64,000 nt of DNA from an uncultured Bacillales bacterium (GCA_946624985.1 CAMOSQ010000001.1:76733-140732), one strand, 5' to 3'; numbered from the stretch's first letter, positions 12,327 to 54,376 are shown. Numbers and translations: made by a program. The notes: generated by a model not told the origin, from the letters alone.

Positions 12327-12400
12327 AGGGGCGTAGTTAAATGGTATAATAATGGTCTCCAAAACCACTGTTGGGAGTTCGATTCTCTCCGCCCCTGCCA
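12327..12400 (+). tRNA. trnW: tRNA-Trp (anticodon CCA), CCA end encoded
   Basis: Manual fold: acceptor AGGGGCG/CGCCCCT, T-arm GGGAG-TTCGATT-CTCTC, anticodon loop CU-CCA-AA, discriminator G plus CCA. Confidence 0.9.
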
Positions 12401-27020: not shown

Positions 27021-27048
27021 AAAAAATGAAGGGTTTCCTTCATTTTTG
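27020..27048. terminator. Bidirectional terminator between convergent genes
   Basis: AAAAAATGAAGG-GTTT-CCTTCATTTTT. Confidence 0.7.
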
Positions 27049-29349: not shown

Positions 29350-29425
29350 AATTATATAAAAATATTGTTTTTTTTATCTTTTTTTGTTATACTTTTATAT
29401 AGGATAAGGATATTTGGTGATTTAT

Positions 29426-31891: not shown

Positions 31892-31893
31892 AT

Positions 31894-32310: not shown

Positions 32311-32322
32311 CGAGGTGAAATA

Positions 32323-33132: not shown

Positions 33133-33141
33133 GAGGGGTAT

Positions 33142-33750: not shown

Positions 33751-33755
33751 TTGTC

Positions 33756-33784
33756 TTGCAAATTATTTATTTATAGTTTATAAT
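33756..33784 (+). promoter_or_regulatory. Internal sigma-70-type promoter upstream of the cpaB-like gene
   Basis: TTGCAA, a 17-nt spacer, then TATAAT. Confidence 0.55.
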
Positions 33785-33829
33785 GAGTATGATACGGTAG
33801 TGTATTTATAGAGTAGAAAGGGTGATTTT

Positions 33830-34633: not shown

Positions 34634-34641
34634 GTGATAAT

Positions 34642-35748: not shown

Positions 35749-35757
35749 GGAGGTAAT

Positions 35758-37463: not shown

Positions 37464-37493
37464 GATGACACTTTTGTGTTATCTTTTTTTTTT
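37464..37493 (+). terminator. Rho-independent terminator
   Basis: GATGACAC-TTTT-GTGTTATC followed by T10. Confidence 0.8.
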
Positions 37494-37545
37494 ATTTACT
37501 ATTTTTTTTAAATGTGTTAAAATTATATTAATGGGAGGCTAGTTT

Positions 37546-38598: not shown

Positions 38599-38627
38599 TT
38601 GACAAATTATCATTTTTATTGTATTAT
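38599..38627 (+). promoter_or_regulatory. Canonical sigma-70 promoter
   Basis: TTGACA, a 17-nt spacer, then TG-TATTAT. Confidence 0.65.
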
Positions 38628-38651: not shown

Positions 38652-39023
38652 ATGGGATTAATTCAAATTTTAGATGGATATACAGGTTGTCCAGGTGTTG
38701 CCGAAATACCATATAAACTTATTAATACAGTTTCTACTATTATTAAGGTTATTAAATTTGGTGTGCCAATTCTTTTAATTATTTTTGGTATGTTAGACTT
38801 AGGTAAGGCTGTTGTTGCTAGTAAAGAAGATGAAATTAAAAAAGGGCAACAAATGTTTATTAAAAGAGTTATTTCTGCAGTTTTAGTATTCTTCGTTGTA
38901 GTAGTTGTTCAATTGGTTGTTAATTTAGCATCAACTGATGATACTACTGAGACAGGTAATATCTGGAATTGTGTTAATACATTTGTTAAAGGATGTCCTA
39001 ATAATAAATGTCCTAAAAATTAG
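38652..39023 (+). CDS. 2-TM pilin-like (VirB2/TrbC/Maff2-type topology) protein, paralog 1
   Basis: VPILLIIFGMLDLGKAVVASKEDEIKKGQQMFIKRVISAVLVFFVVVVVQLVVNL, then a Cys-rich tail IWNCVNTFVKGCPNNKCPKN. Confidence 0.5.
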   Translation: MGLIQILDGYTGCPGVAEIPYKLINTVSTIIKVIKFGVPILLIIFGMLDLGKAVVASKEDEIKKGQQMFIKRVISAVLVFFVVVVVQLVVNLASTDDTTETGNIWNCVNTFVKGCPNNKCPKN

Positions 39024-39044
39024 ACTTTTTAAGTCTTTTTTTTT
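39022..39044 (+). terminator. Terminator hairpin
   Basis: AGACTT-TTT-AAGTCT followed by T8. Confidence 0.6.
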
Positions 39045-39130
39045 GTGTAAACATGTTCTTTTATTATATTATTTTCGTTGATTATTTTATTGTTTTATGG
39101 TATTCTAATATTAGAAATGGATGTGAATTT

Positions 39131-39751
39131 ATGAATGCTTCTCAAATTTGTAATATGTTAGATGCAGATTTAATACGTTTTATTCATAATATTATAGTTA
39201 TTATAAAAATTGCAGTACCTGTTATTTTAGTTATTTTAGGTATGTTAGATTTTGCGAAGGGTGTTACTTCTGGTAAAGAGGATGAAATAAAGAAGGGACA
39301 AGGAATATTTATTAAAAGGTTAATTGCTGGTGCTTGTGTTTTCTTTGTTGTTACAATTGTACAGTTAGTAATGTCGTTTGTTTCTAGCGATGATAATAGT
39401 TTTTGGAATTGCGCTAATCAAATATTAAATGGTACTGGTGGTACTACATATGTACCTAGTGGTGTTACTGGAAATAATAGTAATTATACCAATAAACAAA
39501 ATAATCAGGTAAATACTCAAAATAATGCACAGAATAATAGTCAAAATAATGAAAATAAGCAGCCATTTGTTGATGAAAATGCGGGCGAATCTCATACAAG
39601 TAATAGTGGAAATACTCATGGGGGTGGAGGTTCTAGCTGGGAAGGTAATTCTCCTTCTGGAGGTGCTTCGGAATCACATACTAGTGATAGTGGTTATAGC
39701 CATGGCGGCAATGGAACTAATTATGATACTCAGACTAATGGACATTGGTAA
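39131..39751 (+). CDS. 2-TM pilin-like protein, paralog 2, with an Asn/Gln/Gly/Ser/His-rich tail
   Basis: VPVILVILGMLDFAKGVTSGKEDEIKKGQGIFIKRLIAGACVFFVVTIVQLVMSF, then FWNC. The tail contains the repeat ESHTS[ND]SG..HGG. Confidence 0.5.
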   Translation: MNASQICNMLDADLIRFIHNIIVIIKIAVPVILVILGMLDFAKGVTSGKEDEIKKGQGIFIKRLIAGACVFFVVTIVQLVMSFVSSDDNSFWNCANQILNGTGGTTYVPSGVTGNNSNYTNKQNNQVNTQNNAQNNSQNNENKQPFVDENAGESHTSNSGNTHGGGGSSWEGNSPSGGASESHTSDSGYSHGGNGTNYDTQTNGHW

Positions 39752-39791
39752 TATAATTAATAGTTTAGTTTATATATAAGGAGATATATGT

Positions 39792-41120
39792 ATGGAAAAT
39801 ATTAGTGAAATATTAGAAAAATTAAAGAAAATGTATGAAGAAAGTGTAGATCCTTCTGAATTTAATGGTCTTGTTTCAGAAATGGTTAGTTCTTTAGAAA
39901 TTCTAAAAGAGGAATACGCTAAACGTGCGAATTCTAAAGAAGATATGTTAAAATCTTTTGTGAAATTTTTAGAGGAAGATGAATTATCGCTTGATTATAA
40001 TGAAGAAAAAGAAAAAGTTTTAAAGAATTTTTCTTTGTCTGAATCTGATTTCGACAAGGTTATTGAGCTTAATTCAGGTATCAGTTATATGGCTAAGGTT
40101 AGTGTGGTAGCTGCCGCTTTATTTGCTTCTGAATCTGATTATTATAGGTGTCTTTTAATGTATCATCTTATCGAATGTAAGCATATGAATGACACTATGG
40201 GTGTTATGAAGAAGATGATGTTTATTAATGGTGTTGTTGATAGGTGTAGAAAATGTGGCATTTCTGAGAAAGAAATAAATGAGATGTATGATAGTTGTTT
40301 ATTTAGCAATAAATTCTTTGATGAGTATGAAACTTTTAAAAAGGATTTTTTGACATCTGATTCAAAGAAAGATGAAGGAAAAGATGATTTAGTGGTTAGT
40401 GGTGCGGATAAATCGGATGCACTTGCTTCTGAGCCTAAAGAAAATCCAACACCTGCTGATGCTAAGTTTATTCTTCCTAGTTTGAATGATAATCGTTTGA
40501 GTGATAATCTTGATTCTATTTTTAAAGTTTTAGATTCTGGTGAGCTAGTTAAGACTTCTGAATCTTTAGAAAACGATGTTCCCAAGAATTCTACTACTTC
40601 TGCTTCATTAGATTTTGCAAAGTCAGGTGGATCTGAAAAAGTTGAAATGCCTCAATTTTCTGTTCCTGATGTGCAGGTGTCTTCAGATTTTGAAGAATCT
40701 GTTAATTCTGCTTTTGATTCAGCTTTAACTGAATTATTAACTGATCGCCCTGATATTGCCGCTAGGGCTAATGGAATTGATACTGATAGGGTTGATACAC
40801 CTGATAGTTCTGAGAAACATGATGTTGATAGAAATAAGAATGATTCTTCAGATTCTCACAGTACTGAGTCGGAATTTAATAATCCTTTTGTAAGAACTAA
40901 GGATTCTATTGTTTGGACAGGCTCTGTTTGGGGTGACTCTGATGATCTTAAATTAGTTTCTCCAAGGAAGAAACCAGCACCTAAAAAGATTGAAAAAAAG
41001 GTAAAGAGAAAGACTTCTAATGAGGAGCATGTTTCTTTACGTAAGAAGATTGTTGATAAGTGTATTAAGTTATTAGGTTTACAAGATGATTATAAGATGA
41101 GTGGAGGAAAGAGTAAATAG
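39792..41120 (+). CDS. Hypothetical acidic protein with a disordered Ser/Asp-rich region and a basic C-terminal tail
   Basis: Long ORF with RBS AAGGAG. The C-terminus reads RKKPAPKKIEKKVKRKTS...RKKIVDK. Confidence 0.5.
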   Translation: MENISEILEKLKKMYEESVDPSEFNGLVSEMVSSLEILKEEYAKRANSKEDMLKSFVKFLEEDELSLDYNEEKEKVLKNFSLSESDFDKVIELNSGISYMAKVSVVAAALFASESDYYRCLLMYHLIECKHMNDTMGVMKKMMFINGVVDRCRKCGISEKEINEMYDSCLFSNKFFDEYETFKKDFLTSDSKKDEGKDDLVVSGADKSDALASEPKENPTPADAKFILPSLNDNRLSDNLDSIFKVLDSGELVKTSESLENDVPKNSTTSASLDFAKSGGSEKVEMPQFSVPDVQVSSDFEESVNSAFDSALTELLTDRPDIAARANGIDTDRVDTPDSSEKHDVDRNKNDSSDSHSTESEFNNPFVRTKDSIVWTGSVWGDSDDLKLVSPRKKPAPKKIEKKVKRKTSNEEHVSLRKKIVDKCIKLLGLQDDYKMSGGKSK

Positions 41121-41121
41121 T

Positions 41122-41340
41122 ATGGTTGATGAAAGAATATATGTAACTTCTGATGGATCTGAATATTTTTTAGGTGAAAGACAGGTTTTTGGTGGCATGC
41201 CTTATCTACTTTTATATAAAAAAGATGACGATGATGTATATATAGCATATGAATCTGATGGTAATTTAGTTTTTATTGATGATAGTTATCCACAGTATTC
41301 TACTATTTTTCAAATGTTGTTTGAAAAGTTTAAAGGTTAA
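41122..41340 (+). CDS. Small hypothetical protein (possibly DUF1292-like)
   Basis: MVDERIYVTSDGSEYFLGERQVFGGMPYLLLYKKDDDDVYIAYESDGNLVFIDD shows a weak resemblance to the DUF1292 pattern. Confidence 0.35.
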   Translation: MVDERIYVTSDGSEYFLGERQVFGGMPYLLLYKKDDDDVYIAYESDGNLVFIDDSYPQYSTIFQMLFEKFKG

Positions 41341-41346
41341 TATTTG

Positions 41347-41374
41347 TTGACAAAAATAAATATTTATGTATAAT
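41347..41374 (+). promoter_or_regulatory. Canonical sigma-70 promoter
   Basis: TTGACA, a 16-nt spacer, then TG-TATAAT. Confidence 0.65.
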
Positions 41375-41397
41375 ATTTGTTCAAAGAGGAGGATGTT

Positions 41398-42387
41398 ATG
41401 AAAGATAGCAAAAAAAAGCATGAAACTATTGAAATAAAGACTGGTGTTGTAGCACAGGTTTGTGACGGTTTTTTAAGAAGAGTTCCTGCTGGATATAGAT
41501 TTACTATGAAAACTTATTCTGGTAGAATTAAGGTATATTCTTCGCCATTTGTTTTTAGGTTGCCTGCAACAGAAGCAAAGTTTATTTGTATTTATACTCT
41601 TGAACGCACTGTTACTTATTCTGATGCTGTTAAGACAGCGGATAATATTACTGTTACTTGTGGGTCTCCCATAAAGTATCATTTTCATATTAATGATGAT
41701 GCTGCAAGTATAAGGAAGGCTTTTAATGAGATTGAGGCTGATCAACGTATTAATGATCTTATTAAAGAAATAATTGATTTAATAGTTAAAAATAGTGAAG
41801 CAAAATCTATAAAGCACGGTTTTAGTGTTTCTCCTACTAGAATACCAAGATGGCTTAGCCCTAATGTTCAGGCTCAAATTGTAAATAATTTTAATATTAT
41901 TAGAAATAAATATGGTGCGGTTATTGAAAATGTTTTAAATGTCGATTTTAATGAACCAAAGGAAATACTAGATGCTGAAACAAAGTCTAAGGCTGCTGGT
42001 ATTGAAAGACAAACAGCGATTGATAATGCTGCAAATGAGGCTAGAATTGAAATTATGAAATCTAGAATAGAATATATAAAGCGTTGTTACAATTATGAAG
42101 CTTTATATCAAGCTTATAAAAAGTTTAATTTATCATCTCATGAAATTTGTGATTTATTAAAAAGAGAGTTTACTAAAGCAAATGTTACAATTATAGAAAC
42201 ACCAGGTGGTTTGGATGCTTTAACTGCTGCAGTTTTGAGTGGATTTAAGGATTATCTAGGCCCTAAAACATTTGGACAGCAAGCTAATGATAATTCTTCA
42301 TCTACAACAAAGGATGATGATGTGAAACAATCATCTTCTAACTATATAGATATTGATTATTCAGATACAAACGGAAGATCTAAATAA
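41398..42387 (+). CDS. Hypothetical protein (329 aa), possibly SPFH-like
   Basis: RBS AGAGGAGGA. It has no TM helix; there is a coiled region around residues 200-230 and a Ser-rich tail. Confidence 0.45.
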   Translation: MKDSKKKHETIEIKTGVVAQVCDGFLRRVPAGYRFTMKTYSGRIKVYSSPFVFRLPATEAKFICIYTLERTVTYSDAVKTADNITVTCGSPIKYHFHINDDAASIRKAFNEIEADQRINDLIKEIIDLIVKNSEAKSIKHGFSVSPTRIPRWLSPNVQAQIVNNFNIIRNKYGAVIENVLNVDFNEPKEILDAETKSKAAGIERQTAIDNAANEARIEIMKSRIEYIKRCYNYEALYQAYKKFNLSSHEICDLLKREFTKANVTIIETPGGLDALTAAVLSGFKDYLGPKTFGQQANDNSSSTTKDDDVKQSSSNYIDIDYSDTNGRSK

Positions 42388-42415
42388 ACTAGCAAATTTG
42401 TTAGTTTATTTTTCT
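42386..42415 (+). terminator. Terminator hairpin
   Basis: AACTAGCA-AATT-TGTTAGTT followed by a T-rich tail. Confidence 0.55.
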
Positions 42416-42492
42416 TTTCTATAAAAAAAAACAATATACAAAACCATAAATATATGATACAATAATAGTAGTATGGGTTTGAAGGTGATTAT

Positions 42493-43980
42493 GTGTTTAA
42501 GTCTTTAAATAAGAGTTTTTATAAATTATTATTTTGTTTTGTTTTATTCTTTTCATGTGTAGAATGTGTTTTTGCTAATTTCTTCGATGATGATTCTGTT
42601 AGTAGTGTATTAGGTAATTGTAATTCTGATAATAAGTGTATTCCTTTATGTGTTTATAAAAATTCATCAAATTTAGATGTTGGAATGATAGGTTATTATT
42701 ATAATAACGGTGAATGGATTATAAGATTTCTTGGAAAACCTAATGGATCTGGTATTTATGGTACATATTATGATAGTTATTATCAGACAGGTGGAAGTTT
42801 AGTTCATGGCGATGTGATTTATGATCCTATTAATGGAAAAAGAGAAGATTGGTATGGTAAAACATTATATAATAATTTATCAAATAATTTTTCTTGTCCT
42901 GCTCGTATGTATATCGATGAAGCTTGGGCTCCTGCTAATTATAATGAGTTGTGTTTTGAAGATAATGCTAAAGATTGTCCGAAATTAAATAATGGTGGTA
43001 CAAAATTTAATAATGCATCTACTCTATCATATTCGTTTGCTACGGAGTATAATTTAGTAATGAAGAAAGCTTATGAATCTTTAAGAGATAAATTTAGTGA
43101 TCACGATGAAACAACAAATAAAAGTAAAGTTGAATTCTTATCTGTTCTAGATTCAGGCTATAAATATGATTCTAGTTTATCAGCTGATGCAAATGCTAAA
43201 AATAACTGTTCTTATTTGAAAGAAAAGGCTGATGGAAAGTATCAAGAATATATGAAAACTTTTGCATCGGAAGATTATTTTAACAAATATTTGAATAATT
43301 TTTTAAATCCGGAGATACAACAAACAGCAAAGACGAATAATTCTAAATTTTCATATGTATATGATTATAAAACTTTGTATAATTTAAAGGTTACTAAGAA
43401 ACTTGGAGTGTATGAAGGTGGTAATTCTGAGGATAGAACTGGCCCTGTAATTGATATGTTTGATGCTGCTTATAATAAAAATGTTAAAGAGGCTATTAAT
43501 TTTGTTAGTAATTATTGCAATGATTCTACAAATACTAAAATAGATATGAGGGTCGATACTGATGGCGATGGTGAACGTGATTCTGATAATATGAATGCTA
43601 TAATTGATTCGGAAAGAGAATCATTTGAAATCAGAAAGTTTGCTGATCCTGAAATTATTGGACTAGATGATCCTGATTCTGTAACTTATGATTGTGGTTT
43701 CTTATCAGATGTTGCTGGCATAATTAGTGATGCATATTTTATAATTGAAATGGCTGGATTAGTTTTACTTATTGTTTTATCAGTTTTTGATTATGTTAAA
43801 ATTTTTTTAAATGATAATTCTGATGAGATGAAGAAAGCTAATACTAATTTGTTTAAAAGATTAATTATTGCTGTTTTATTATTTTTATTACCAGCACTTG
43901 TTAATTTTTCACTTAGAATATTTAAGATTGAGGGTATTAATTCTGAACATCCTTTATGTGTTCAAATTTCAAATAAATAG
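42493..43980 (+). CDS. Secreted Cys-rich protein ending in the 2-TM pilin-like module (paralog 3, C-terminal fusion)
   Basis: Signal peptide LLFCFVLFFSCVECVFA. The C-terminus is GLVLLIVLSVFDYVKIFLNDNSDEMKKANTNLFKRLIIAVLLFLLPALVNFSL, which aligns with paralogs 1 and 2. Confidence 0.5.
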   Translation: MFKSLNKSFYKLLFCFVLFFSCVECVFANFFDDDSVSSVLGNCNSDNKCIPLCVYKNSSNLDVGMIGYYYNNGEWIIRFLGKPNGSGIYGTYYDSYYQTGGSLVHGDVIYDPINGKREDWYGKTLYNNLSNNFSCPARMYIDEAWAPANYNELCFEDNAKDCPKLNNGGTKFNNASTLSYSFATEYNLVMKKAYESLRDKFSDHDETTNKSKVEFLSVLDSGYKYDSSLSADANAKNNCSYLKEKADGKYQEYMKTFASEDYFNKYLNNFLNPEIQQTAKTNNSKFSYVYDYKTLYNLKVTKKLGVYEGGNSEDRTGPVIDMFDAAYNKNVKEAINFVSNYCNDSTNTKIDMRVDTDGDGERDSDNMNAIIDSERESFEIRKFADPEIIGLDDPDSVTYDCGFLSDVAGIISDAYFIIEMAGLVLLIVLSVFDYVKIFLNDNSDEMKKANTNLFKRLIIAVLLFLLPALVNFSLRIFKIEGINSEHPLCVQISNK

Positions 43981-43992
43981 AAAGGAGATATT

Positions 43993-45966
43993 ATGGGAAA
44001 ATTACTTGGATCTATACTTAGGTTTTTATTTTCTTGGATAGACTCAATAGTTATTAAGCTTATTACTATTTTATATAGATTGCTTACTGATTTATCTGAA
44101 TTAGTTTTATATAGCGATAATATTATTAAGTTGATAGGTAGAAGAATTGCTTTGATCTTAGGCATATTTATGTTATTTAAACTTGCTATTTCTTTAATTA
44201 GTTATATGATATCTCCTGATAAACTTAGTGATAGTAAGCAGGGTGGAGGAAAGCTAATTGTAAATGTTTTTATTTCTCTTGGATTACTTATTTCTGTTAA
44301 TTTGATTTTTAAAGAAGCTTATAAAGTTCAAGGGATAATTGTTAATAGTCAAATTATTGAAAAGATATTTTTTGGTAATACGGGGATGGTTAGAAGTAAT
44401 AACGATTATTCTGAAGATTCTGATAATCCTACTGTTAAGATGGATATAGGGTATTATTTATATTCAGGTTTCTTTGTTCCTAATAGTGATGAAGATGTCT
44501 TTGGTGATGTTTGTAACGACATGTGGGATGTATCTGTAGATTGGAAGGATAAAAAAGAGGGACAAGATAAGTCTTGTTATGATACTTTAGATAGTAAATT
44601 AGATAGTGAAATGATGAAGAGTCTTGGTAATGCTAGAAATTCACTTGATATGTCTTATGTATTTTCAGATCATGATTTGATTTTAGCTTCTCCTGCTACA
44701 AAGAAATTCTATTTTGAGTATACTCCTATTGTTTCAACTGCAGCTGGTATTGTAGTTCTTCTTGTTTTACTAAGTTTTGCTATGGATTTGGCTACTCGCG
44801 CTGTTAAATTATTGTTTTTACAAATAATTGCTCCTATTCCTATTATTTCAAATATGGATATGGGAAAAGGACAAGATATATTTAAAAAATGGGGTAAGGA
44901 GTGTATTAATACTTATTTAACAGTATTTATTAGGCTTATAACTATTAATTTTGCTGTATTTATGATTGTTCTTTTAAAGGGAAATTATAAAGATTTATTT
45001 GTTAATAATATATGGCTTAATGTATTTCTTATAATTGGATGTTTAATGTTTGCTAAGCAGGTTCCTAAGTTATTAGAAGATTTTTTTGGAATAAAGATGG
45101 ATGGTATGGCGCTTAATCCACTTAAGAAATTCCAAGAACAGGCTTTATTTGGAAAACAAATTAGTGGAGTTGCAAGTGGTTTAGCTGTAGGTGGACTTGC
45201 AACAGGTGCTGGTTTATTAACTGGTCAAGGTATTCATCGTAAAATTTTCTCTTCTGCTGTTAAGAGTGGCTTTACTGGAGAAAAATTTAGCAAGAATTTT
45301 TCGAATTCTTATGGTGCTATTAGGGCTAGGCATAAGGAACTTGGTTTGATGCATCTTGATGGTGTTGATAGATTTGATGTCGCAAAGGATAAGGCTTTTA
45401 ATCTTACGCATGTTCAAACAAGGATTGAACGTATTAATAGTGTTACAGATGGTTTGAAAGCTATTCAAAGTGATTATGATTCATATGTTGGTATATCTAC
45501 TGGTGTTGATGCTATAGCAAAAGACTTGGATAAGAGAAAGAAGGCTGCAGAAGCTGCTGGTGATTATGCTGAGGCTAATAAATGGAGTGCTGCTTTGGAT
45601 GCAAGGGTAAAAGAAATTGCACAAAACAATGGTAGATTAATGACTAACGCTACACGTATGCAGGTAAATGCTAATGGTACATATACAATTGTTGGTGCTA
45701 CTGCTGCAGATTATCAGGATAATGATGCATTAAAGAATATTGCAGATCATATGACCGCATTGGCTGATTCTATGAATAAAAAAGGTGCTGATTATGGAAT
45801 TGAAGGTTATAAAACAGTTAATTATAGTTTAAATCCTAATGGTGGAATAGATGATATTAAAGGTATTAGAAATCTTGCACAAGGATCTCAACAATCTATT
45901 GAAACTAATTCTAAAAATAGAGAACTTCAAGATATTGCTAAATATTCAGGAAAAGACAAAAAATAA
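43993..45966 (+). CDS. VirB6/TrbL-like polytopic membrane protein with a long hydrophilic C-terminal domain
   Basis: At least six TM helices in the first ~400 aa, including the FLQIIAPIPIISNMDMGKGQDIFKKWGKECINTY loop. It sits immediately upstream of the VirB3- and VirB4-like genes. Confidence 0.45.
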   Translation: MGKLLGSILRFLFSWIDSIVIKLITILYRLLTDLSELVLYSDNIIKLIGRRIALILGIFMLFKLAISLISYMISPDKLSDSKQGGGKLIVNVFISLGLLISVNLIFKEAYKVQGIIVNSQIIEKIFFGNTGMVRSNNDYSEDSDNPTVKMDIGYYLYSGFFVPNSDEDVFGDVCNDMWDVSVDWKDKKEGQDKSCYDTLDSKLDSEMMKSLGNARNSLDMSYVFSDHDLILASPATKKFYFEYTPIVSTAAGIVVLLVLLSFAMDLATRAVKLLFLQIIAPIPIISNMDMGKGQDIFKKWGKECINTYLTVFIRLITINFAVFMIVLLKGNYKDLFVNNIWLNVFLIIGCLMFAKQVPKLLEDFFGIKMDGMALNPLKKFQEQALFGKQISGVASGLAVGGLATGAGLLTGQGIHRKIFSSAVKSGFTGEKFSKNFSNSYGAIRARHKELGLMHLDGVDRFDVAKDKAFNLTHVQTRIERINSVTDGLKAIQSDYDSYVGISTGVDAIAKDLDKRKKAAEAAGDYAEANKWSAALDARVKEIAQNNGRLMTNATRMQVNANGTYTIVGATAADYQDNDALKNIADHMTALADSMNKKGADYGIEGYKTVNYSLNPNGGIDDIKGIRNLAQGSQQSIETNSKNRELQDIAKYSGKDKK

Positions 45967-45983
45967 AAAGGGTGTGATATATA

Positions 45984-46298
45984 GTGAATTATTTAATTCC
46001 TGCTAATACTAAAAAGAGTTTGCTTGCATTTGGATTATTTAATAAGTTTGATTTGATATTATTTGGAAGTGGGATTGCTGCATCTTTGTTATTACTTCTT
46101 TTGTTACCTGTTGAACAGCTTATGTTTGCTATTATTGCTATCCTTCCTGGATTGATAACTGGATTTTTAGTTTTTCCAATTCCTTATTATCATAATGTTT
46201 TAACTGTTATTATTAATTTCTTTACTTTTTTTACTACTAGACAACAGTTTATTTGGAAAGGTTGGTGTGTAAAAGATGGCGAAAGCGACGACAAGTAA
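45984..46298 (+). CDS. PrgI/TcpE/VirB3-like small membrane protein
   Basis: 104 aa. IPANTKKSLLAFGLFNKFDLILFGSGIAAS... plus two TM helices match the PrgI-family layout. It overlaps the next gene. Confidence 0.55.
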   Translation: MNYLIPANTKKSLLAFGLFNKFDLILFGSGIAASLLLLLLLPVEQLMFAIIAILPGLITGFLVFPIPYYHNVLTVIINFFTFFTTRQQFIWKGWCVKDGESDDK

Positions 46299-46821
46299 GT
46301 ATACTGTTGATGATATTCCTGTTAAGGATATTGTTAATGGTACTATTGTTCTTAAGAATAATCAAAAGGTCACTGGTGTTAAAATTGAACCTAGAAATAT
46401 TTTTATTCTTGAACCTAATATGCAAGATATGATTATTACTAATTTAAAAAATGTTTATAATCTTATTGATTATGAGTTTTGGATTATAGCTGCTGATAGA
46501 CCTGTTGATATTAATGTTTATTTATCTCAGTTACAGCTTTTGTATAATGCTACACAAGATGTTGCTAGAAAGAAATTAATTATTCAGGATATGAATAAGG
46601 CTAATATGTTTGTTAATAACAATGTTGTTGATACTGAGTATTATTTATTATTTAAGGAAAAGGATAATGATTTAATTACTAAGAGAATTAAGAATTTGAT
46701 TAATAGTTTTGCTTCTGCTGGTTTATCTACTAAGCAGGTTACTAATGATGATTTAAGAATTATTCTTGATAATTTCTTGAATGGTGGACAAACTACTGGA
46801 TTTGGGACGGTGATTAGTTAA
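46276..46821 (+). CDS. N-terminal fragment/domain of VirB4-type ATPase (separate ORF)
   Basis: DDIPVKDIVNGTIVLKNNQKVTGVKIEPRNIFILEPNMQDMII... is the pattern usually found at the N-terminus of Gram-positive VirB4 (PrgJ/Orf16-type). The stop overlaps the next ATG (TAATG). Confidence 0.6.
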   Translation: MAKATTSKYTVDDIPVKDIVNGTIVLKNNQKVTGVKIEPRNIFILEPNMQDMIITNLKNVYNLIDYEFWIIAADRPVDINVYLSQLQLLYNATQDVARKKLIIQDMNKANMFVNNNVVDTEYYLLFKEKDNDLITKRIKNLINSFASAGLSTKQVTNDDLRIILDNFLNGGQTTGFGTVIS

Positions 46822-48605
46822 TGGATATAAGATCACAGATTGCTCCTAAGGGGCTTGAGTTTAAACCTGCACATTTTATTATTAGTGATAAGTATGCTAC
46901 TATTCTTACTGTTGTTTCTTTTCCTAAGGTTATTTCTCCTGGATATCTTTCTAATTTAACTAGTTTGAGTGGAGTTAAGATTGTTATTAAGCATATTCCT
47001 CTTCCTTTTAGTGTTATTACTAAGATGATTAATAAGGAAATTGCTGATTTAAAGGTTAGATATCAACAAGAGAATGATAAGACTTTACAAGAAAGAATTC
47101 GTTTGGATTATGAGTCTTTGGAACAATTTATTAGTATGCTTGCATCTACTCAATCAAAGATTTATGATTTTCAAATGCATATTATGATTACTGCTGATAA
47201 TGAGGATGAATTAAGTGCGAAGAAGTTACAGGTTAAGAATTATTTAGAGGCAATGGAGATGCATGCTATTCCTTTAAGATTTGAACAAAAGAAGGTTTTG
47301 CATTCTATTATTCCAATTTATCCTAAGCAAGATATAGAGGATAGAATAGGTACTCCTATTCCTGCTCCTACAATAGCTGCTATGTATCCTTTCATTTTTG
47401 ATAGTATTAAGGATCCTGGATTATCCACTTTGCTTGGTGTTGATTTTTCTGGTGGTGTTATTTTATTTAATCAATTTTTATATCAAATTAAGAAAGAAAA
47501 TAATAGAAATAATGCTAATATGATTGTTCTTGGTACTGCTGGTTCTGGTAAGAGTACTGCTGCTAAGATTCTTTTGAGAAGTCATATTAGGAATAATCAT
47601 CAGATTGTAGCAATTGATCCTGAAGGTGAATTAGAGGAAATGTGTCTTCGTTATGGTGGAGATTTTATAGACCTTGGTAAGGGTGGAGAATTTGGTATGA
47701 TTAATCCTTTAGAGGTTGTTGTTGATGCTGATGATGAGGAGATTGCTCAAGGATTAGGTTATACTGTTCTTACTCGTACTATACAAACTGTTAAGGCTTT
47801 TATGAAGTATTATGATCCTTCTATTGAAGAGGATGTTCTTAATATGTTTAGTGAGGTTTTACAAGATACTTATAGGAGATTTGGTATTGATTTTAATATT
47901 GATTTTACAAAATTAAGTTCTACTGATTATCCTACTTTTAAGGATGTTTATGCTACTATTAAAGGAAGAATTGTTTCTATTCCTAATGAAACTCGTGAGA
48001 AGGATATTTTAGAAAGATTAGAGTTAAAATTAAGACCTATTGTTAAAGAATTAAGATTTTATTTTGATGGACATACTACTATTGCTCCTAAAAGTGATTT
48101 TATTGTATTTAATATAAAGGAACTTATGAATGTTGATACAAATATAAGAAATGCTTTATTTTTCAATGTATTAAAGCATGCATGGAGTTTAACTCTTGAT
48201 AAAACAATTAATACCGTATTAGAGGTTGATGAAGCTCATATTTTACTTGCTGGGAATAATGTTTTAGGAGCTGATTTCTTAGCTCAAGTACAAAGACGTG
48301 CTCGTAAGTATAATACAGGTACTATAATTATTACTCAACAGCCTAGTGATTTTTCTGATCCTAGTGTTCTTATTCAAGGTAAGGCAATATTTGATAATGC
48401 TTCTTATTATCTTGTTATGGGGCTTAAAAAACAGGCTGCTGAAGATTTATCTAGATTAATCGATTTGAATGAAAGTGAAATAGAAAGTATTAAAAAGTAT
48501 TCTCAAGGTGAAGCATTGTTTGTATGTGGAAATAAGCGTATGAGAATAAATGTTATTGCTACTGAAGAAGAATTAGATTCTTTTGGAAGTGGCGGCGGAT
48601 TATAA
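46821..48605 (+). CDS. virB4: VirB4-type conjugation/secretion ATPase (TraE/PrgJ/TcpF-like), main part
   Basis: Walker A GTAGSGKST and Walker B LEVDEAHILL, then ARKYNTGTIIITQQPSDF. Length plus the upstream ORF comes to about 775 aa. Confidence 0.85.
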   Translation: MDIRSQIAPKGLEFKPAHFIISDKYATILTVVSFPKVISPGYLSNLTSLSGVKIVIKHIPLPFSVITKMINKEIADLKVRYQQENDKTLQERIRLDYESLEQFISMLASTQSKIYDFQMHIMITADNEDELSAKKLQVKNYLEAMEMHAIPLRFEQKKVLHSIIPIYPKQDIEDRIGTPIPAPTIAAMYPFIFDSIKDPGLSTLLGVDFSGGVILFNQFLYQIKKENNRNNANMIVLGTAGSGKSTAAKILLRSHIRNNHQIVAIDPEGELEEMCLRYGGDFIDLGKGGEFGMINPLEVVVDADDEEIAQGLGYTVLTRTIQTVKAFMKYYDPSIEEDVLNMFSEVLQDTYRRFGIDFNIDFTKLSSTDYPTFKDVYATIKGRIVSIPNETREKDILERLELKLRPIVKELRFYFDGHTTIAPKSDFIVFNIKELMNVDTNIRNALFFNVLKHAWSLTLDKTINTVLEVDEAHILLAGNNVLGADFLAQVQRRARKYNTGTIIITQQPSDFSDPSVLIQGKAIFDNASYYLVMGLKKQAAEDLSRLIDLNESEIESIKKYSQGEALFVCGNKRMRINVIATEEELDSFGSGGGL

Positions 48606-48622
48606 TAGTTGGTGGTGATTAA

Positions 48623-50599
48623 ATGAAGGCTTTTTTAATGAAATTACTTAAAAATAAGGCAAAAAGTGCTTTGAGTAATTCTGAATCAAAGCCTTCTTTT
48701 TCACCATATTTAAAATATGCCATATTTGGTGGTAGTGGATTTGTTTTTTTTCTATTAGGAATAATTGTTATATGTGTTATTATTTTCGCACCTGTCTTTC
48801 TAGCAGAAGAGTATTTTGGTAGTGGTAAAGATGTTGCTGCATATGATTATTGTGGAGATTCTTGTGGAGAAAATGAATCTAAGTTTTATACTAAATTAAA
48901 TGAAGTTAAGGAATCATATAAATCACGTGGTATTACTATTGATACTAATTTAATTAGTGGGACTGTTTTTTATGGTAGTACTTTAAGTAGCGAGAGTTTT
49001 AATTCTGATGATCCTGATAGCGATGATTTGATTGATGATTCTAAAATACATGTTTCTGATGTTAAACCTTTAGCGTCTAATATGGTTAGTGGTAGTTCTC
49101 TTGATTATGGTAAGTATCGTAATTATTTAATTAATATATATATTCCTAAGAGATTTAAAGATTTATATACTGATGATAAAGGTATTGAGAGAATTGCAGA
49201 TGATATAATGAGTTATGCTAGTTTAAAGGGTGATGCAATTGCTTCTAGTGGTTCTCTTGGGGTAAGTTGTACTTCTATTACTTTAAAAGAAGATGATGGT
49301 ACTATAAAACCACATGTTCTTGAGGAATATGTGGCTGGAGTAGTTGAGGCTGAAAATGGTGGAGCAGGTCCAGAGGCTAGAAAAGTTCAGGCTCTTGCCG
49401 CTAGAACTAATGCGGTTACTCATTGTAATAGTGTTATTGATAATTCTACTAATTTTCAAAAGTATAAGACTCCTTCTTTTTCTGCTATTGAGGCAGCAGA
49501 GGCAACAAAAGGGTTAGTATTAACTTATGATGGTGAAATGCTAAAAGAAATGCCTTTTGCTTCATATCCAATGTCTAATTATAGAGGTGGATTTCCTGGA
49601 TATGAGGCTTTGGGACATGTATGTAGTGATGTAAAGTGTACTACAGGTAGTGATGGTAGACAGTGGTGTGATACAACTTTGTATAGAGTCCCTAATATGG
49701 ATAGTTTTCAGTTAAGTATGCCTGATACTAATTTAAATGGTTCTCTGTGGAATGGATTACATTTGGATAATCAAAAAGGTCACTGTTATGGAGTTAGTCA
49801 GGTTGCATCAATTTATTATGAGAATGAACTTAATTATGATTATAAAAAAATGATAGAAGTATTTTTTTCTGATGGTGTTGAAATTACTTCTATACCAACT
49901 GGATATAATGGTGAAGTTGCAAGTACTGATGGAACGAATTTTTTACCATATGAATTGGATAGATTTTTAAATGAAAAAGGTTCAAGTGTTCAGGCTTTTA
50001 ATTTATCTATCAAACAGGCAGTTATGGCTTCGGGGCCTGGGACTAGAGCAGGTGTTGTTGCTGCTGCTAATGCACTTATAAATGGTTTATCTCAATATGG
50101 TGTTAAACTTCCATATATATCTTCAACTGGTGCTAGTGGTACAGCGTCTGGTAAGTATAAGGAATATGGTGTTGCTTCTGATTGGGGAAAGACAGGTTCT
50201 TGGTATAGTGCAGTTTATAACAATACTTATACACAAACAGGATTGGATTGTAGTGGCTTTGTTTCTTGGGCAATATATAATGCAGGTTATGTATATGGTT
50301 ATAATGGTCAAGAATGCAATTCTGTTTGTTATTTAAGAAATATTGGTGTTTCTCATGATTTTGCTTCATTTAGGGGGCAACCTGGTGATTTAGTTGTTGA
50401 AAATGGTCATATTGGTATGATTATTGGGGTTAGTGATTCAGAATATTCTGTTGCAGAGGAACATGGTGGTGATAATGGGCTTGAGGTTACTCATTATAGT
50501 TTTAATAATCCACGTGGACAATTTACACATATTCTTGATATGACTGAATACTATTCTAATAGTTCTAATATGAATCTTTCATATTATCAAGGAGGTTAA
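48623..50599 (+). CDS. Bifunctional cell-wall hydrolase: SpoIID/LytB-like plus NlpC/P60 domains, membrane-anchored
   Basis: TM helix FVFFLLGIIVICVIIFAPVFL. The SpoIID-like motif is EEYVAGVVEAENGGAGPEARKVQALAARTNAV. NlpC/P60 is shown by GLDCSGFVSWAIYNAGY ... GHIGMIIG. Confidence 0.75.
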   Translation: MKAFLMKLLKNKAKSALSNSESKPSFSPYLKYAIFGGSGFVFFLLGIIVICVIIFAPVFLAEEYFGSGKDVAAYDYCGDSCGENESKFYTKLNEVKESYKSRGITIDTNLISGTVFYGSTLSSESFNSDDPDSDDLIDDSKIHVSDVKPLASNMVSGSSLDYGKYRNYLINIYIPKRFKDLYTDDKGIERIADDIMSYASLKGDAIASSGSLGVSCTSITLKEDDGTIKPHVLEEYVAGVVEAENGGAGPEARKVQALAARTNAVTHCNSVIDNSTNFQKYKTPSFSAIEAAEATKGLVLTYDGEMLKEMPFASYPMSNYRGGFPGYEALGHVCSDVKCTTGSDGRQWCDTTLYRVPNMDSFQLSMPDTNLNGSLWNGLHLDNQKGHCYGVSQVASIYYENELNYDYKKMIEVFFSDGVEITSIPTGYNGEVASTDGTNFLPYELDRFLNEKGSSVQAFNLSIKQAVMASGPGTRAGVVAAANALINGLSQYGVKLPYISSTGASGTASGKYKEYGVASDWGKTGSWYSAVYNNTYTQTGLDCSGFVSWAIYNAGYVYGYNGQECNSVCYLRNIGVSHDFASFRGQPGDLVVENGHIGMIIGVSDSEYSVAEEHGGDNGLEVTHYSFNNPRGQFTHILDMTEYYSNSSNMNLSYYQGG

Positions 50600-50600
50600 T

Positions 50601-51272
50601 ATGAAAAAATGCATGATACTTATTTGTTTGATTTTTATTACTGGTTGTAGCGCTAGGTATACTATTGAATTTAACGATAAAAGTATAAAAGATAAATTGT
50701 CTGTTTATGGTATTGATTTACATTCTTATAATGATATTAAAGAAGGAGTTTATTCTCCAATTCCTGCATTTAAGGATGCAATTATAAATTTGGAGGAACC
50801 TATTAAAAATGAGGGTGTTGAATATTATAATATAAGTGGTGACGATAGTAATGCCTATTTAGATTATAAATTTGAATTATCTGATTTTGAAGATTCTTAT
50901 TTTGCTAATACTTGTTATGACTATTTTAAGGTTTTTCAAGAAAAAGATGAGATTATTATTTCTACTGGTAAAAACTTTAAGTGTTTTTTTCCTGGTCGTA
51001 ATTTAGATTCAGTTGATATTGTTATTAAATCTAATCATAAGATTATATATAATAATGCTGATGAAGTTAAGAATAATGAATATATATGGCATATTAACAA
51101 AAGTAATAAGGATGATGCAAATATACAGATTTCTTTTTCAAAAGATTATAATGAAAAAAAGAAGAGTATTAATATTGCTCAGGTTTCTTTATATATAGGT
51201 ATATTCGGGGTAGTTGCTTTAGTTATTGCTTTGTTTGTTTTAATTAAAAATAAGCGTGTTAATAAAATTTAG
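50601..51272 (+). CDS. Lipoprotein with a C-terminal TM anchor
   Basis: Lipobox LIFITGCSA and C-terminal helix LYIGIFGVVALVIALFVLI. Confidence 0.55.
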   Translation: MKKCMILICLIFITGCSARYTIEFNDKSIKDKLSVYGIDLHSYNDIKEGVYSPIPAFKDAIINLEEPIKNEGVEYYNISGDDSNAYLDYKFELSDFEDSYFANTCYDYFKVFQEKDEIIISTGKNFKCFFPGRNLDSVDIVIKSNHKIIYNNADEVKNNEYIWHINKSNKDDANIQISFSKDYNEKKKSINIAQVSLYIGIFGVVALVIALFVLIKNKRVNKI

Positions 51273-51293
51273 AACTTTTTAGTTCTTTTTTTT
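51271..51293 (+). terminator. Rho-independent terminator
   Basis: AGAACT-TTTT-AGTTCT followed by T8. Confidence 0.7.
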
Positions 51294-51348
51294 ATTTTTT
51301 TAAGGATTTTTATTTTTTGTGTTGTAACATATAATTAGGAGGGATTTT

Positions 51349-52302
51349 ATGAAAAAATATTTTAAAAAACTTTCTAATGATTCTATGTTTAAATTGGTTT
51401 TTTCGAATAAGAAATATATGAGTTTGTTATTGGAAAAAATTCTTGGAAGAAAAATTGATGATTATTCTATAATTAATAAAATTGATAATAAAGAAATAGA
51501 TGAGAATAATATCATAGAACTATTAAAACAAGAATTAGTTACAAGGAATATTAATGTTAAGAAGAAGACGGTTGATTTACTTGTTAAAAGAAAAAATGAA
51601 ATCATTGATATTGAGGTAAATAATATATTTGATGAAGATATAAGAAAAAGAAATTTTGCTTATCTATCAAATATTTATTCAAATATATTAGAACATGGAC
51701 AAGATTATGGTGAACAGCCAGGATGTATACAAATTAATATTTGTAATAACATTGAGGAAAACTACGAATATGATAATCATTGTTTGCTGGGGGAAAACTA
51801 TAAAAATAAATTTATAGATAATATTAATTTTTTGGTATATGATGTTGCCAAATATAAAAAAATGTTGTATACTGGTAACAAGAAGTTAATTCAAAAATAT
51901 TCTCATATAATTATGTTTGATTGTGATGAAGAAGAACTAGAATTACTTGGAAAATATGATTTTATGGTAAAGGAGATTGGTGATATGGTTAAAAAGTATA
52001 ATGAGGATAACATATTTAGTTTTATGACTGATGAAGAATCATATGAGAGATTATTTAGGTCCCAAATGAAAACAGCTACAAAGAAAGGTTATAACCAAGG
52101 TTTAGAAAAAGGATTTAATCAAGGGATTGATAAAGGATTTAATCAGGGGATTAGTCAAGGGATTGAGCAAGGGATTGAGCAAGGTATTGCACAGAATAAG
52201 CTAGATATTGTTTTTAAAATGTTAAAGAGAAAGTATCCTATATCTGATATTTCAGAAATAACAGGATATTCACAAGATTATTTAAAGTCAATAAAAATAT
52301 GA
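51349..52302 (+). CDS. PD-(D/E)XK nuclease family transposase-like protein (Rpn/YhgA-like), copy 2
   Basis: About 80% aa identity to the 27040-27942 product over ~240 aa (KLSNDSMFKL.FSNKKYMS.LLEK..., TVDLLVKRKNEIID.EVNN, CIQINICNNIEENYEYDNHCLLGENY). The C-terminal Q/E-G-[IFL] repeat tract is longer. Confidence 0.6.
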   Translation: MKKYFKKLSNDSMFKLVFSNKKYMSLLLEKILGRKIDDYSIINKIDNKEIDENNIIELLKQELVTRNINVKKKTVDLLVKRKNEIIDIEVNNIFDEDIRKRNFAYLSNIYSNILEHGQDYGEQPGCIQINICNNIEENYEYDNHCLLGENYKNKFIDNINFLVYDVAKYKKMLYTGNKKLIQKYSHIIMFDCDEEELELLGKYDFMVKEIGDMVKKYNEDNIFSFMTDEESYERLFRSQMKTATKKGYNQGLEKGFNQGIDKGFNQGISQGIEQGIEQGIAQNKLDIVFKMLKRKYPISDISEITGYSQDYLKSIKI

Positions 52303-52322
52303 TACTTATATGTATCTTTTTT
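52301..52322 (+). terminator. Terminator hairpin
   Basis: GATAC-TTATAT-GTATC followed by T6. Confidence 0.55.
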
Positions 52323-52377
52323 CTTGTATTGATTTACTTTATTTAATGTGTTAAACTATTTATAGTTGAGGTGCTTT

Positions 52378-53520
52378 ATGAAGAAGAAATTTTATAAAAT
52401 TTTATTTTTTCTTTTATTGTTTATGCCAGTGTGTGTTAATGCTGCAGATTATTTGTTGTGTGGAAATGATAAGAAACTTCCTTTAGTATTTGGACAAATT
52501 TTATCAATTATTTTTGTTCTTATTAAAATAATGGTCCCAGTTTTGCTTGTAATTATGTCTATGGTTTCTTTTATAAAAGCAGTTGTTTCGGGTAAGGTTG
52601 ATGATGAGTTAGCACGTGTTAAGCAGGTTTCTATTCAAAGAATTATTTCTGCTGTTATTATATTTTTTATTTTTTCAATTGTTAATTTTGTAATTAATTT
52701 ATCTGTTTCTACTAATAATAGTTTTAGTAGTTGTCTTTATTGTTTGTTTAATTCTGATCATTGTGAGCAGGCAGATGATGAGCTTGCAAAGTTGTGTCCT
52801 GGCTTAATGAGTCAGCAGAAGGATTATGATGTTAATTGTAAGTATATAGGTGGAATTGGTGATCGTATTAATTATGCTGATACTGGTGATACTGGAGTTC
52901 CTGATTATGCTAATTATGGTAGTAATTCTTCTGGAACCATTACAGAAAGTCCTACTGGTGAATATACTACTTGGAGGCAAGGATCGCCTGAATGGGGTAG
53001 TCGTTGGTATGGTGGATATGATTCAAAAGGTAATAAGGTTGATATTGCACATTATGGTTGTAATTTTACTTCTATAGCTATTCAAATTAAGAGATCTGGA
53101 TTACCTACAACTATTAATCCATTTAATCCTGGTACTATGTTTGATTATATGAAGCCAAAAGGGTATCTTAGTTCGGGTGGATCAACTATAAATTATGGTG
53201 TTTTTAAAGAGGTTGCTCCTGGTTTTGAATTTGATGGCCAAAAAAACTTATCTTTAAATGATACTGAAACATATAATATATTGTCTGGTTTATTAAAGGA
53301 TGATAAATATCCTATTGTTCACGTTAAATCAAATAATGGTAAGCCTTTTGGTACGAGTGGTCATTATGTTGCGGCGATTGGTTATACTGATAAAGATATT
53401 ATAATTGTTGATCCTGCTAATACAAATTGTACAAGGTTGTTTACTTGTAAACCTGAGCTTGATAGAAGTAATGGATATCTTATAGCTGGTAAAACTTCTT
53501 ATTGGAGGGTTGATAGATGA
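52378..53520 (+). CDS. 2-TM pilin-like module (paralog 4, N-terminal) fused to a papain-like cysteine peptidase domain (C39-like)
   Basis: Signal peptide FFLLLFMPVCVNA. The module is VPVLLVIMSMVSFIKAVVSGKVDDELARVKQVSIQRIISAVIIFFIFSIVNFVINL. The C-terminal domain has WRQGSPEWGSRWYGG...HYGCNFTSIAIQI (Cys) and SGHYVAAIGYTDKDIIIVDP (His). Confidence 0.5.
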   Translation: MKKKFYKILFFLLLFMPVCVNAADYLLCGNDKKLPLVFGQILSIIFVLIKIMVPVLLVIMSMVSFIKAVVSGKVDDELARVKQVSIQRIISAVIIFFIFSIVNFVINLSVSTNNSFSSCLYCLFNSDHCEQADDELAKLCPGLMSQQKDYDVNCKYIGGIGDRINYADTGDTGVPDYANYGSNSSGTITESPTGEYTTWRQGSPEWGSRWYGGYDSKGNKVDIAHYGCNFTSIAIQIKRSGLPTTINPFNPGTMFDYMKPKGYLSSGGSTINYGVFKEVAPGFEFDGQKNLSLNDTETYNILSGLLKDDKYPIVHVKSNNGKPFGTSGHYVAAIGYTDKDIIIVDPANTNCTRLFTCKPELDRSNGYLIAGKTSYWRVDR

Positions 53521-54289: not shown

Positions 54290-54376
54290 GTTATAGGTAA
54301 TGTTTTCTCTTGAATATAAATTGTAGTAAGTGTATAATATATTTAGTTGTTTACATTAATTTTTATAGGAGGGTAT

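Follow-up and report, generated by a model that had tools for sequence, protein, structure and literature searches.

A 64,000-nucleotide (nt) stretch of DNA from an uncultured Bacillales bacterium (GCA_946624985.1, CAMOSQ010000001.1:76733-140732; called the window, whose numbering is used throughout), which lies within a 213.7-kb metagenomic scaffold, contained a gene cluster spanning about 29.4 to 56.6 kb in which four open reading frames (ORFs) carried copies of one small hairpin module with two transmembrane (TM) helices. These ORFs are denoted A, B, C, and D. The region had a GC content of 28%, nearly all of its genes were on the plus strand, and TGA was read as a stop codon. A preliminary description of the window had named the four genes, and the ORF check showed that all of them exist where it had placed them (Table 1). 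The public gene call also started B at 39131, and a longer B ORF from 39053 is possible. The ORFs and alignments bore out that the module stands free in A, at the C-terminus in C and at the N-terminus in D.

The four copies were related over the same stretch of ~60-90 residues, for which BLASTP gave E values of 3e-28 between A and B (53% identity), 1e-15 between A and D (38%), and 1e-7 between A and C (30%). A family profile was built from 93 diverse relatives with a mutual identity of at most about 62%. Among all ORFs of the window it matched exactly A, B, C, and D (E values of 1e-26 to 1e-42, the next ORF having 0.025) and none of the cluster's remaining membrane proteins. The profile thus linked the four segments above chance, and the likeness among them is a matter of homology rather than of transmembrane composition. 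A, B, C, and D are true paralogs of one ~85-residue, two-TM hairpin that occurs by itself or with an exported domain joined to one or the other end. The regular expression by which the segment had first been described matched none of the four copies literally and serves as a loose consensus only. The [FW]-[NS]-C motif just after TM2, which had been ascribed to three copies, was present in A (IWNC) and B (FWNC), the corresponding residues being FSSC in D and HPLC in C.

The paralogs differed in what surrounds the hairpin. A contained Cys13 ahead of TM1 and Cys107, Cys115, and Cys120 beyond TM2. Its gene had a GGAGGA ribosome-binding site (RBS) 7 nt ahead of the ATG, and its stop codon was followed by a weak nucleotide hairpin (AGACTT-TTT-AAGTCT) with a T-run (39024-39046). 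The promoter-like site ahead of A was one of the two best sigma-70-like matches in the region, the total for the region not being above that of shuffles. A layout of a promoter-like site, a strong RBS, and a hairpin with a T-run is often seen for abundant major subunits. The tail of B (39434-39748) had been called rich in N, Q, G, and H; Asn (20%) and Gly (17%) were indeed the leading residues, with Ser (14%) and Thr (11%) to be added and Gln and His at 7% and 5%, and the tail was free of Cys. The motif ESHTS-[ND]-SG-x-[TS]-HGG occurred twice in it, within N/G/S/T-rich sequence, and N/Q/G-rich tails like that of B were also seen in the family members P0134 and P0160.

In C, the ectodomain contained eight Cys residues and comprised a beta domain (residues 32-181) and a helical domain (residues 182-382), while the hairpin occupied residues 406-492 (43708-43968) and the gene stopped 13 nt ahead of the VirB6-like gene. 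The AlphaFold2 (AF2) model of C, with a predicted local distance difference test (pLDDT) score of 78 and many blocks of at least 90, showed the beta domain, the helical domain, and the hairpin, and a Foldseek search of this model against PDB and BFVD gave no match below E=0.1. The ectodomain (42493-43674), with neither a Pfam domain nor a PDB or BFVD match, may represent a new fold family of surface proteins, as judged from the model. The C family comprised ~30 full-length members with conserved cysteines. The ectodomains of C-type proteins were hypervariable, and that of C itself was recognizable in just one other locus. D had been described as a cysteine-peptidase fusion, and its Peptidase_C39_2 domain, scanned alone, scored 25.3 bits against the Pfam cut-off of 24, with the Cys in YGCNF and the His in SGHYVAA as candidate catalytic motifs. 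Homologues of this peptidase were present in eight other loci as proteins of 600-680 amino acids (aa) that lack the module, so that the fusion in D is lineage-specific.

Hydropathy and alignment showed that each copy consists of TM1, a charged loop of ~20 residues, and TM2. Over the 93 members, the mean number of Lys and Arg residues was 6.0 in the loop as against 1.7 in the N-terminal flank and 1.45 in the C-terminal flank, and the flanks were net acidic. At least one Cys was found in the N-terminal flank of 99% and in the C-terminal flank of 99% of the members, the helices and the loop having almost none, and the pair formed by one Cys before TM1 and one after TM2 was present in all four copies of the window and in at least 90% of the 93 members. 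A signal peptide was clear in C and D and was found in neither A nor B, and both kinds occurred in related loci. The signal peptides of C and D looked cleavable and place their domains outside. Taken together, the Lys/Arg bias of the loop, the flanking cysteines, and these signal peptides favor an N-out/C-out arrangement in which the loop is cytoplasmic and at least one extracellular disulfide would tie the outer ends to each other. The loop motif [SQ]KEDEIKKGQ..FIKR was invariant in 24 A-type orthologues and recognizable in all paralogs. The AF2 model of A, made from a 24-member alignment, was a helical hairpin (residues 21-55 and 59-95) followed by a short C-terminal helix, with a pLDDT of 67. 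A Foldseek search of this model against PDB gave no match below E=1, which is uninformative because a two-helix hairpin is too simple a fold. The succession of TM, charged loop, and TM, which the preliminary description had likened to VirB2/TrbC, is that of VirB2-type pilins, and the predicted placement of both ends outside and of the loop in the cytoplasm fits the hydropathy, the charge and Cys statistics, the signal peptides, and the AF2 model.

The module belongs to a large family. A had more than 1,100 relatives at 90% clustering, none with a Pfam annotation or an informative name, and the exhaustive profile search gave at least 9,703 clusters at 50% identity (E<=1e-3), 5,101 of them at E<=1e-10. 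The names "amino acid transporter" and "DltB", carried by two family members in the source data, were clearly wrong. In a one-genome-per-species collection, 219 genome stretches encoded a relative, and the hosts were almost all metagenome-assembled genomes (MAGs) of uncultured gut bacteria labeled "Bacilli", "Tenericutes", "Mollicutes", "Mycoplasmatota", or "Erysipelotrichaceae". The 257 modules in related loci included 150 that were free-standing, 49 at the C-terminus of exported proteins of 230-680 aa, 15 at the N-terminus ahead of a tail, and 43 in short proteins extended at the N-terminus, likely by a signal peptide. The best 150 cluster representatives were likewise divided into 57 free modules, 54 C-terminal ones, and 39 N-terminal ones. 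A Pfam scan of the 93 extended proteins among these 150 found no known domain in the extensions at E<=1e-4; the extensions were often Cys-containing or N/Q/G/S-rich. Many C-terminal extensions (P0134, P0135, P0158, P0161, P0166, P0175, P0195, P0196, P0233, and P0237) shared the pattern C..Y..C......C.TIFQ..C, which points to a recurrent small disulfide-rich domain outside Pfam and absent from the window. Multiplication and fusion of the module within one cluster had been regarded as unusual; with one to eight copies and fusions being normal in ~80 loci, arrays and fusions are the norm for this hairpin family and not a peculiarity of the window.

Downstream of the array, the cluster encoded the parts of a type IV secretion system (T4SS), and the module gene adjoined VirB6-VirB3-VirB4, which is the gene position of virB2 (Table 1). 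The best model for VirB4 was that of the mycoplasma integrative and conjugative element (ICE), the Mbov_0397 family. The two VirB4 ORFs lie in different frames with a TAATG overlap, and the same split into parts of 177-181 aa and 594 aa was seen in ~65 related loci, so that it is a conserved organization and not a frameshift error or a pseudogene. A gene for a 247-aa protein lies between D and VirD4, and housekeeping genes for a rhodanese, an AI-2E transporter, Cmk, an alanyl-tRNA synthetase, and a class A penicillin-binding protein directly follow VirD4. The cluster proteins that were scanned included no member of a relaxase or integrase family. Plasmid and phage sequences yielded no match to the cluster by megablast or to A by tblastn, and the cluster is not a known plasmid or phage.

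Upstream, a block resembling tight adherence (Tad) and type IV pilus (T4P) systems (29414-38595) adjoined the hairpin genes, and the two were kept together in most loci. There is one earlier mention of DUF5411, which this block encodes, in a Tad/T4P-like system predicted for gut Clostridia (PMC9523054). Family scans matched no Flp-type pilin and no prepilin peptidase in the cluster. Both polytopic proteins are called TadB/C-like by position only; the ORF at 35758 had no Pfam or NCBIfam match, and that at 36660, covered by the Pfam scan only, had one match at noise level (Selenoprotein_S, E 0.008). An NCBIfam scan of nine unannotated cluster proteins and of a 397-aa lipoprotein-like ORF just upstream (28124-29317) returned nothing, which leaves position and visual features as the basis of the TadB/C/Z/F-like labels.

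Table 1. Features of the hairpin-module cluster. Coordinates are those of the window.
Feature	Coordinates	Strand	Remarks
A	38652..39023	+	123 aa; hairpin alone, without signal peptide; conserved "core" paralog
B	39131..39751	+	206 aa; hairpin at residues ~13-97, then 105-aa tail
C	42493..43980	+	495 aa; signal peptide, ~370-aa Cys-containing ectodomain, C-terminal hairpin
D	52378..53520	+	380 aa; signal peptide, hairpin (~52489-52743), Cys-rich linker, Peptidase_C39_2-like domain (~53038-53418)
Promoter-like site of A	38599..38627	+	TTGACA-17-TATTAT, 11/12; consensus match only
825-aa exported protein	29414..31891	+	Head of cluster; homologues in 10 loci
DUF5411 protein and two proteins with pseudopilin-like N-terminal hydrophobic helix	31894..33750	+	DUF5411 4e-44; TadE/F-like by eye; kept in 50-71 loci
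CpaB-like protein, CpaF/T2SSE ATPase, two polytopic proteins	33830..37463	+	T2SSE 2e-28; RcpC 0.008 (weak); kept in 57-62 loci
349-aa protein with degenerate ParA/MinD-type P-loop	37546..38595	+	TadZ/CpaE-like by eye; no family match
Three genes between B and C	39792-42387		442 aa, acidic low-complexity; 79 aa; 336 aa, SPFH/Band-7-like
VirB6/TrbL-like polytopic membrane protein	43993..45966	+	PF19597 TrbL_4 5e-11; Mbov_0396 and MMCAP2_0566 families
VirB3/PrgI-like small 2-TM protein	45984..46298	+	No family match; label by position and topology; kept in 66 loci
VirB4 N-terminal part (VirB4N)	46276..46821	+	Separate 181-aa ORF; positions 99-276 of Mbov_0397 VirB4 model; PF26593 TraC-like
VirB4 ATPase body	46821..48605	+	594 aa; NF045975 341 bits; conju_CD1110 162 bits
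Membrane-anchored SpoIID and NlpC/P60 cell-wall hydrolase	48623..50599	+	VirB1 analogue
Putative lipoprotein with C-terminal TM segment	50601..51272	+	Adjoins VirB4/VirD4 in 34 loci
PD-(D/E)XK protein (PDDEXK_2, Rpn-like)	51349-52302	+	Between lipoprotein gene and D
VirD4 coupling protein	54347..56557	+	NF045973 conju_CD1115 294.5 bits, cut-off 250

The three genes between B and C were missing from almost all related loci and would seem to have been inserted into the array in a lineage-specific way. A second PD-(D/E)XK gene (27040-27942, minus strand) lies just upstream of the cluster, with 73% protein identity to the copy at 51349-52302, and this opposed pair could promote rearrangement of the region between them. 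A first impression of phage-like content in the left half of the window did not hold, as the ORFs scanned there (about 12.5-24 kb) were chromosomal-type genes. A single tRNA-Trp (CCA) gene at 12327-12400, followed by oxidoreductase-like ORFs, had no relation to the cluster.

Comparison of 82 loci, each taken with 10 kb on either side, showed a common order of DUF5411, CpaB, CpaF, two polytopic proteins, two pseudopilin-like proteins, a ParA-like protein, and one to eight module genes, followed by VirB6, VirB3, VirB4N, VirB4, a hydrolase or peptidase, a lipoprotein, and VirD4. The order module-VirB6-VirB3-VirB4 was kept in about 65 loci, and in 69 of 70 loci a module gene, either free (43 loci) or a C-type fusion (25 loci), stopped less than 200 bp ahead of VirB6. 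Over 60 loci, the median identity of the A core (residues 30-92) was 71%, compared with 80% for VirB4, 74% for CpaF, 61% for the VirB3-like protein, 45% for the ParA-like (TadZ-like) protein, and 32% for VirB6; the A core is thus conserved on a par with the ATPases. The cluster looks like a fixed hybrid of a Tad-like and a T4SS locus. The rhodanese gene was also found after the locus in three other genomes (L023, L027, and L038). Its recurrence, the housekeeping genes abutting VirD4, and the lack of relaxase and integrase families among the proteins scanned suggest that the apparatus is chromosomal and inherited vertically and is not an ICE, which is reminiscent of the relaxase-less T4SS of Patescibacteria.

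The preliminary description had proposed pilin families as relatives of the module, and the profile searches bore this out in part: they led to PF18895 (T4SS_pilin) via intermediates and, weakly, to pilin-like and VirB6-like proteins of mycoplasma ICEs, but not to TrbC/VirB2 or Maff2. PF18895 was the commonest Pfam match of the 93 members (33/93 at E<0.01, best 1.3e-6), with unrelated TM families close behind (DUF621 in 19/93, 7tm_1 in 13/93), and it had no match among the same sequences reversed. For the module of P0308, a C-type fusion, 18 of 33 relatives carried the PF18895 annotation. All ten annotated relatives that were rescanned passed the cut-off, with 26.6-35.3 bits, full model coverage, and a best E value of 1.2e-8. 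A hidden Markov model (HMM) from the four window modules alone gave 62-80 bits on 17 PF18895-annotated proteins, and single-sequence phmmer searches of annotated proteins gave 60.5 bits with A, 68 with B, 50 with C, and 40 with D. The modules are likely divergent members of the PF18895 superfamily, for which, as a whole, the name "pilin" is an annotation-level assignment. In NCBIfam, three of the four families most frequently matched by the 93 members were mycoplasma ICE transfer proteins, among them NF045849, the "Mbov_0395 family pilin-like conjugal transfer protein", and the N-terminal part of Mbov_0396/MMCAP2_0566, in agreement with the affinity of VirB4 to mycoplasma ICEs. NF045849 was matched by 7 of the 93 members (best 8.2e-5) and by none of A, B, C, and D at E<0.1. 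Neither PF04956 (TrbC/VirB2) nor PF12750 (Maff2) matched any of A, B, C, and D, and neither appeared in the list of 25 families obtained with the 93 members. A module HMM gave negative results against PrgD-PrgM of pCF10, with 1.5 bits on PrgF, and PrgF itself reached only E=0.004 against Maff2. PrgF is a positional and topological analogue of the module only, and no sequence relation to Maff2 or to TrbC/VirB2 was detected.

On balance, the modules are probably VirB2-like small subunits, from a divergent PF18895 branch, of a monoderm-type T4SS, in which a conserved core subunit is accompanied by domain-displaying variants. The hairpin would insert with both ends outside, and its nearly invariant K/E-rich loop, facing the cytoplasm, would dock on a common partner, which may be VirB4N/VirB4, VirB6, or VirB3. 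A disulfide between the flanks before TM1 and after TM2 would staple the outer ends together, as a functional analogue of the head-to-tail cyclization of TrbC/VirB2. A would be the major subunit, given that no other paralog is as conserved and that it comes with a promoter-like site of its own as well as a strong RBS, and B, C, and D would be minor or variant subunits that carry an extra domain at one terminus, N or C. In VirB2-type pili both termini point outward, and what is appended there, namely the low-complexity tail of B, the Cys-rich ectodomain of C, and the cysteine peptidase of D, would hence be exposed at the T4SS, either on the cell surface or on a filament. The C-type proteins, which always lie directly before VirB6 and have hypervariable ectodomains, are candidate adhesins or tip-like subunits, and D might bring a papain-like peptidase to the same place as a possible second wall hydrolase or processing enzyme. 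The suggestion that the copies are alternative subunits, or a means of mounting cargo on a common filament or channel, is the best functional hypothesis.

Several observations weigh against this assignment. The PF18895 cut-off of 26.6 bits was not reached by the window copies (A 22.0, B 13.6, D 15.5, and C without a match). The 93 sequences, when reversed, matched the unrelated family DUF973 in 37 cases, with E values down to 2e-5, and P0313, a PF18895-positive relative, also passed the cut-off of DUF1980; for a hydrophobic hairpin, 26-30 bits therefore carry little weight by themselves. Aligned by hhalign with seven annotated plasmid VirB2/TrbC proteins, the 93-member alignment gave a probability of 0.1%, no better than the reversed control. 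The profile found no relative among PDB sequences, only noise from TM5-loop-TM6 of G protein-coupled receptors, and Foldseek found no proven pilin in PDB. The loop of ~20 residues is far longer than that of classical VirB2, and we know of no PF18895 protein that has been shown to form a filament. Finally, the array is tied as tightly to the TadZ-like gene, which is immediately upstream of it in 74 of 82 loci, as to VirB6, and one locus (L038) consists of the Tad-like block and one module followed by the rhodanese gene, with no T4SS there.

It is possible, though rather unlikely, that the hairpins are non-polymerizing subunits of the T4SS channel or platform in the membrane, which in the fusions would serve as a system-specific membrane anchor holding the domains by the channel, and that there is no pilus; such a role is likened to that assumed for the PrgF/Maff2-type or TcpD/E-type small proteins of Gram-positive systems. 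PrgF occupies the same gene position in pCF10 (prgF-prgG-prgH/VirB6-prgI/VirB3-prgJ/VirB4) and has the same TM-charged loop-TM topology, and Gram-positive T4SS are generally held to be pilus-less (PMC12857230). The long, invariant cytoplasmic loop suits a stable docking interface more than a pilus lumen, and proven pilins show no similarity to the module. Yet similarity is equally lacking to PrgF and Maff2, and A has the expression signals of an abundant protein, as far as a consensus match goes. Moreover, up to eight divergent paralogs with variable outer flanks follow the pattern of pilin arrays seen in Patescibacteria and in Bartonella Trw (PMC12102498, PMC12857230).

The position of A directly behind the TadZ-like gene would also be expected if the hairpins served the Tad-like machine, in which they would be an atypical pilin or a platform part handled by the CpaF-like ATPase, the T4SS being merely co-encoded. 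The cluster holds pseudopilin-like proteins, a CpaF-type ATPase, and platform candidates together with neither a Flp-type major pilin nor a prepilin peptidase, and the locus without a T4SS (L038) points the same way. In all known T4P and Tad pilins, however, a class III signal peptide is combined with just one helix, at the N-terminus. The modules have two TM helices and no such leader, and the families they match are those of T4SS pilins and ICE proteins instead of Flp or TadE. Three loci (L012, L014, and L027) keep the module and the T4SS with no CpaF or TadB/C in range. The two-helix architecture and the family matches thus favor the T4SS over the Tad-like part as the machine served, and an assignment to the latter is improbable. 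That the hairpins are accessory proteins outside the secretion apparatus, such as holins, immunity proteins, or entry-exclusion proteins, is scarcely credible: small two-TM proteins with charged loops occur in all those classes, but across 60 loci the core equals the ATPases in conservation, the modules keep a fixed place between the TadZ-like gene and VirB6 and bear extracellular domains at either end, and no toxin or lysis partner was seen.

If the modules are VirB2-like subunits, a wider picture can be drawn, which as a whole is speculative and unlikely. The locus would be a relaxase-less, vertically inherited hybrid of a Tad-like system and an MPF_FATA-type T4SS with a true VirB2-type, disulfide-stapled filament, on which minor subunits graft adhesins, enzymes, and tails, and VirB2-like pilins would be ancestral to monoderm MPF_FATA systems and not co-opted by Patescibacteria. 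Its hosts may be walled monoderms among the reduced-genome gut Bacilli and Mycoplasmatota, and the locus may be non-conjugative, as a counterpart of the essential T4SS of epibiotic Patescibacteria. Gram-positive T4SS are otherwise said to have no VirB2-type pilins, Patescibacteria being the single exception (PMC12857230), and the Patescibacteria survey leaves open a co-option from diderm systems "given their absence in MPF_FATA" (PMC12102498). The existence of a large PF18895-related family beside a mycoplasma-ICE-like VirB6-VirB3-VirB4 set in gut Bacilli and Mycoplasmatota argues against that absence and makes the question testable. The fusions of hairpins to ectodomains suggest a general way to mount adhesins or enzymes on a T4SS surface structure, and they single out, for further work, thousands of "dark" surface domains in abundant gut bacteria. 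In the literature searched, PF18895/T4SS_pilin appeared only in the Patescibacteria work and in one structure-clustering preprint, and there was no account of this hairpin family, its Cys pair, its fusions, or a Tad-like/T4SS hybrid locus in Bacilli or Mycoplasmatota.

Among known systems, PrgF of pCF10, considered here together with Maff2 (PF12750), is a 75-aa TM-charged loop-TM protein encoded upstream of PrgH (VirB6-like), PrgI (VirB3-like), and PrgJ (VirB4). It differs from the modules in that it is single-copy, unfused, and without conserved Cys, and it has no similarity to the module profile. The classical TrbC/VirB2/TraA pilins (PF04956; Agrobacterium VirB2, RP4 TrbC, and F TraA) share with the modules the two-helix hairpin with termini outside and loop inside and a gene adjoining virB3/virB4, and the proposed disulfide would mimic their cyclization. 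In the F-pilus structure, the termini face the outer surface, so that terminal fusions would be displayed. The modules differ from these pilins in sequence, to which no similarity was found, in the length of the loop (~20 residues versus 3-5), in the lack of a signal peptide in A and B, and in the absence of an outer membrane.

The mycoplasma ICEs (NF045849 Mbov_0395; NF045889/NF045848 Mbov_0396/MMCAP2_0566) share the order of a pilin-like protein, a VirB6-like protein, and VirB4, the last of which is closest to Mbov_0397 here, and concordant weak matches came from 7, 8, and 24 of the 93 modules. No module score came near the curated cut-offs. These elements are not known to have arrays or ectodomain fusions, and they lack cell-wall hydrolases and Tad-like genes. 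Consecutive locus tags suggest that Mbov_0395/Mbov_0396 correspond to ICEA CDS15/CDS16; CDS15-17 of ICEA are essential for transfer (PMC6030558). The Trw system of Bartonella, with multiple trwL/VirB2 and trwJ/VirB5 genes, shows the same tandem amplification and diversification of pilin genes, which is read as producing variable surface structures (PMC12857230); it differs in its diderm host, its classical VirB2 family, and the absence of domain fusions.

Patescibacteria have arrays of 2-11 VirB2-like genes with PF04956/PF18895 matches and ~25% mutual identity beside an MPF_FATA-related VirB4, and the array of Ca. S. epibionticum is essential (PMC12102498; PMC12857230). The modules differ from the arrays of Ca. 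Southlakia epibionticum ML1 and from the "Sec-secreted array" of TM7x in their hosts, which are gut Bacilli/Mycoplasmatota MAGs, and in the paired Cys, the frequent fusions to large ectodomains at one or the other end, and the fixed coupling to a Tad-like block, which are not described there (PMC12102498, PMC12857230). With respect to PF18895, the window copies are below the cut-off while their relatives pass it. Both sets consist of small two-TM hairpins in tandem, divergent paralogs that lie near an MPF_FATA-type VirB4, VirB3, and VirB6 in a monoderm, and both are chromosomal and mostly relaxase-less (PMC12102498).

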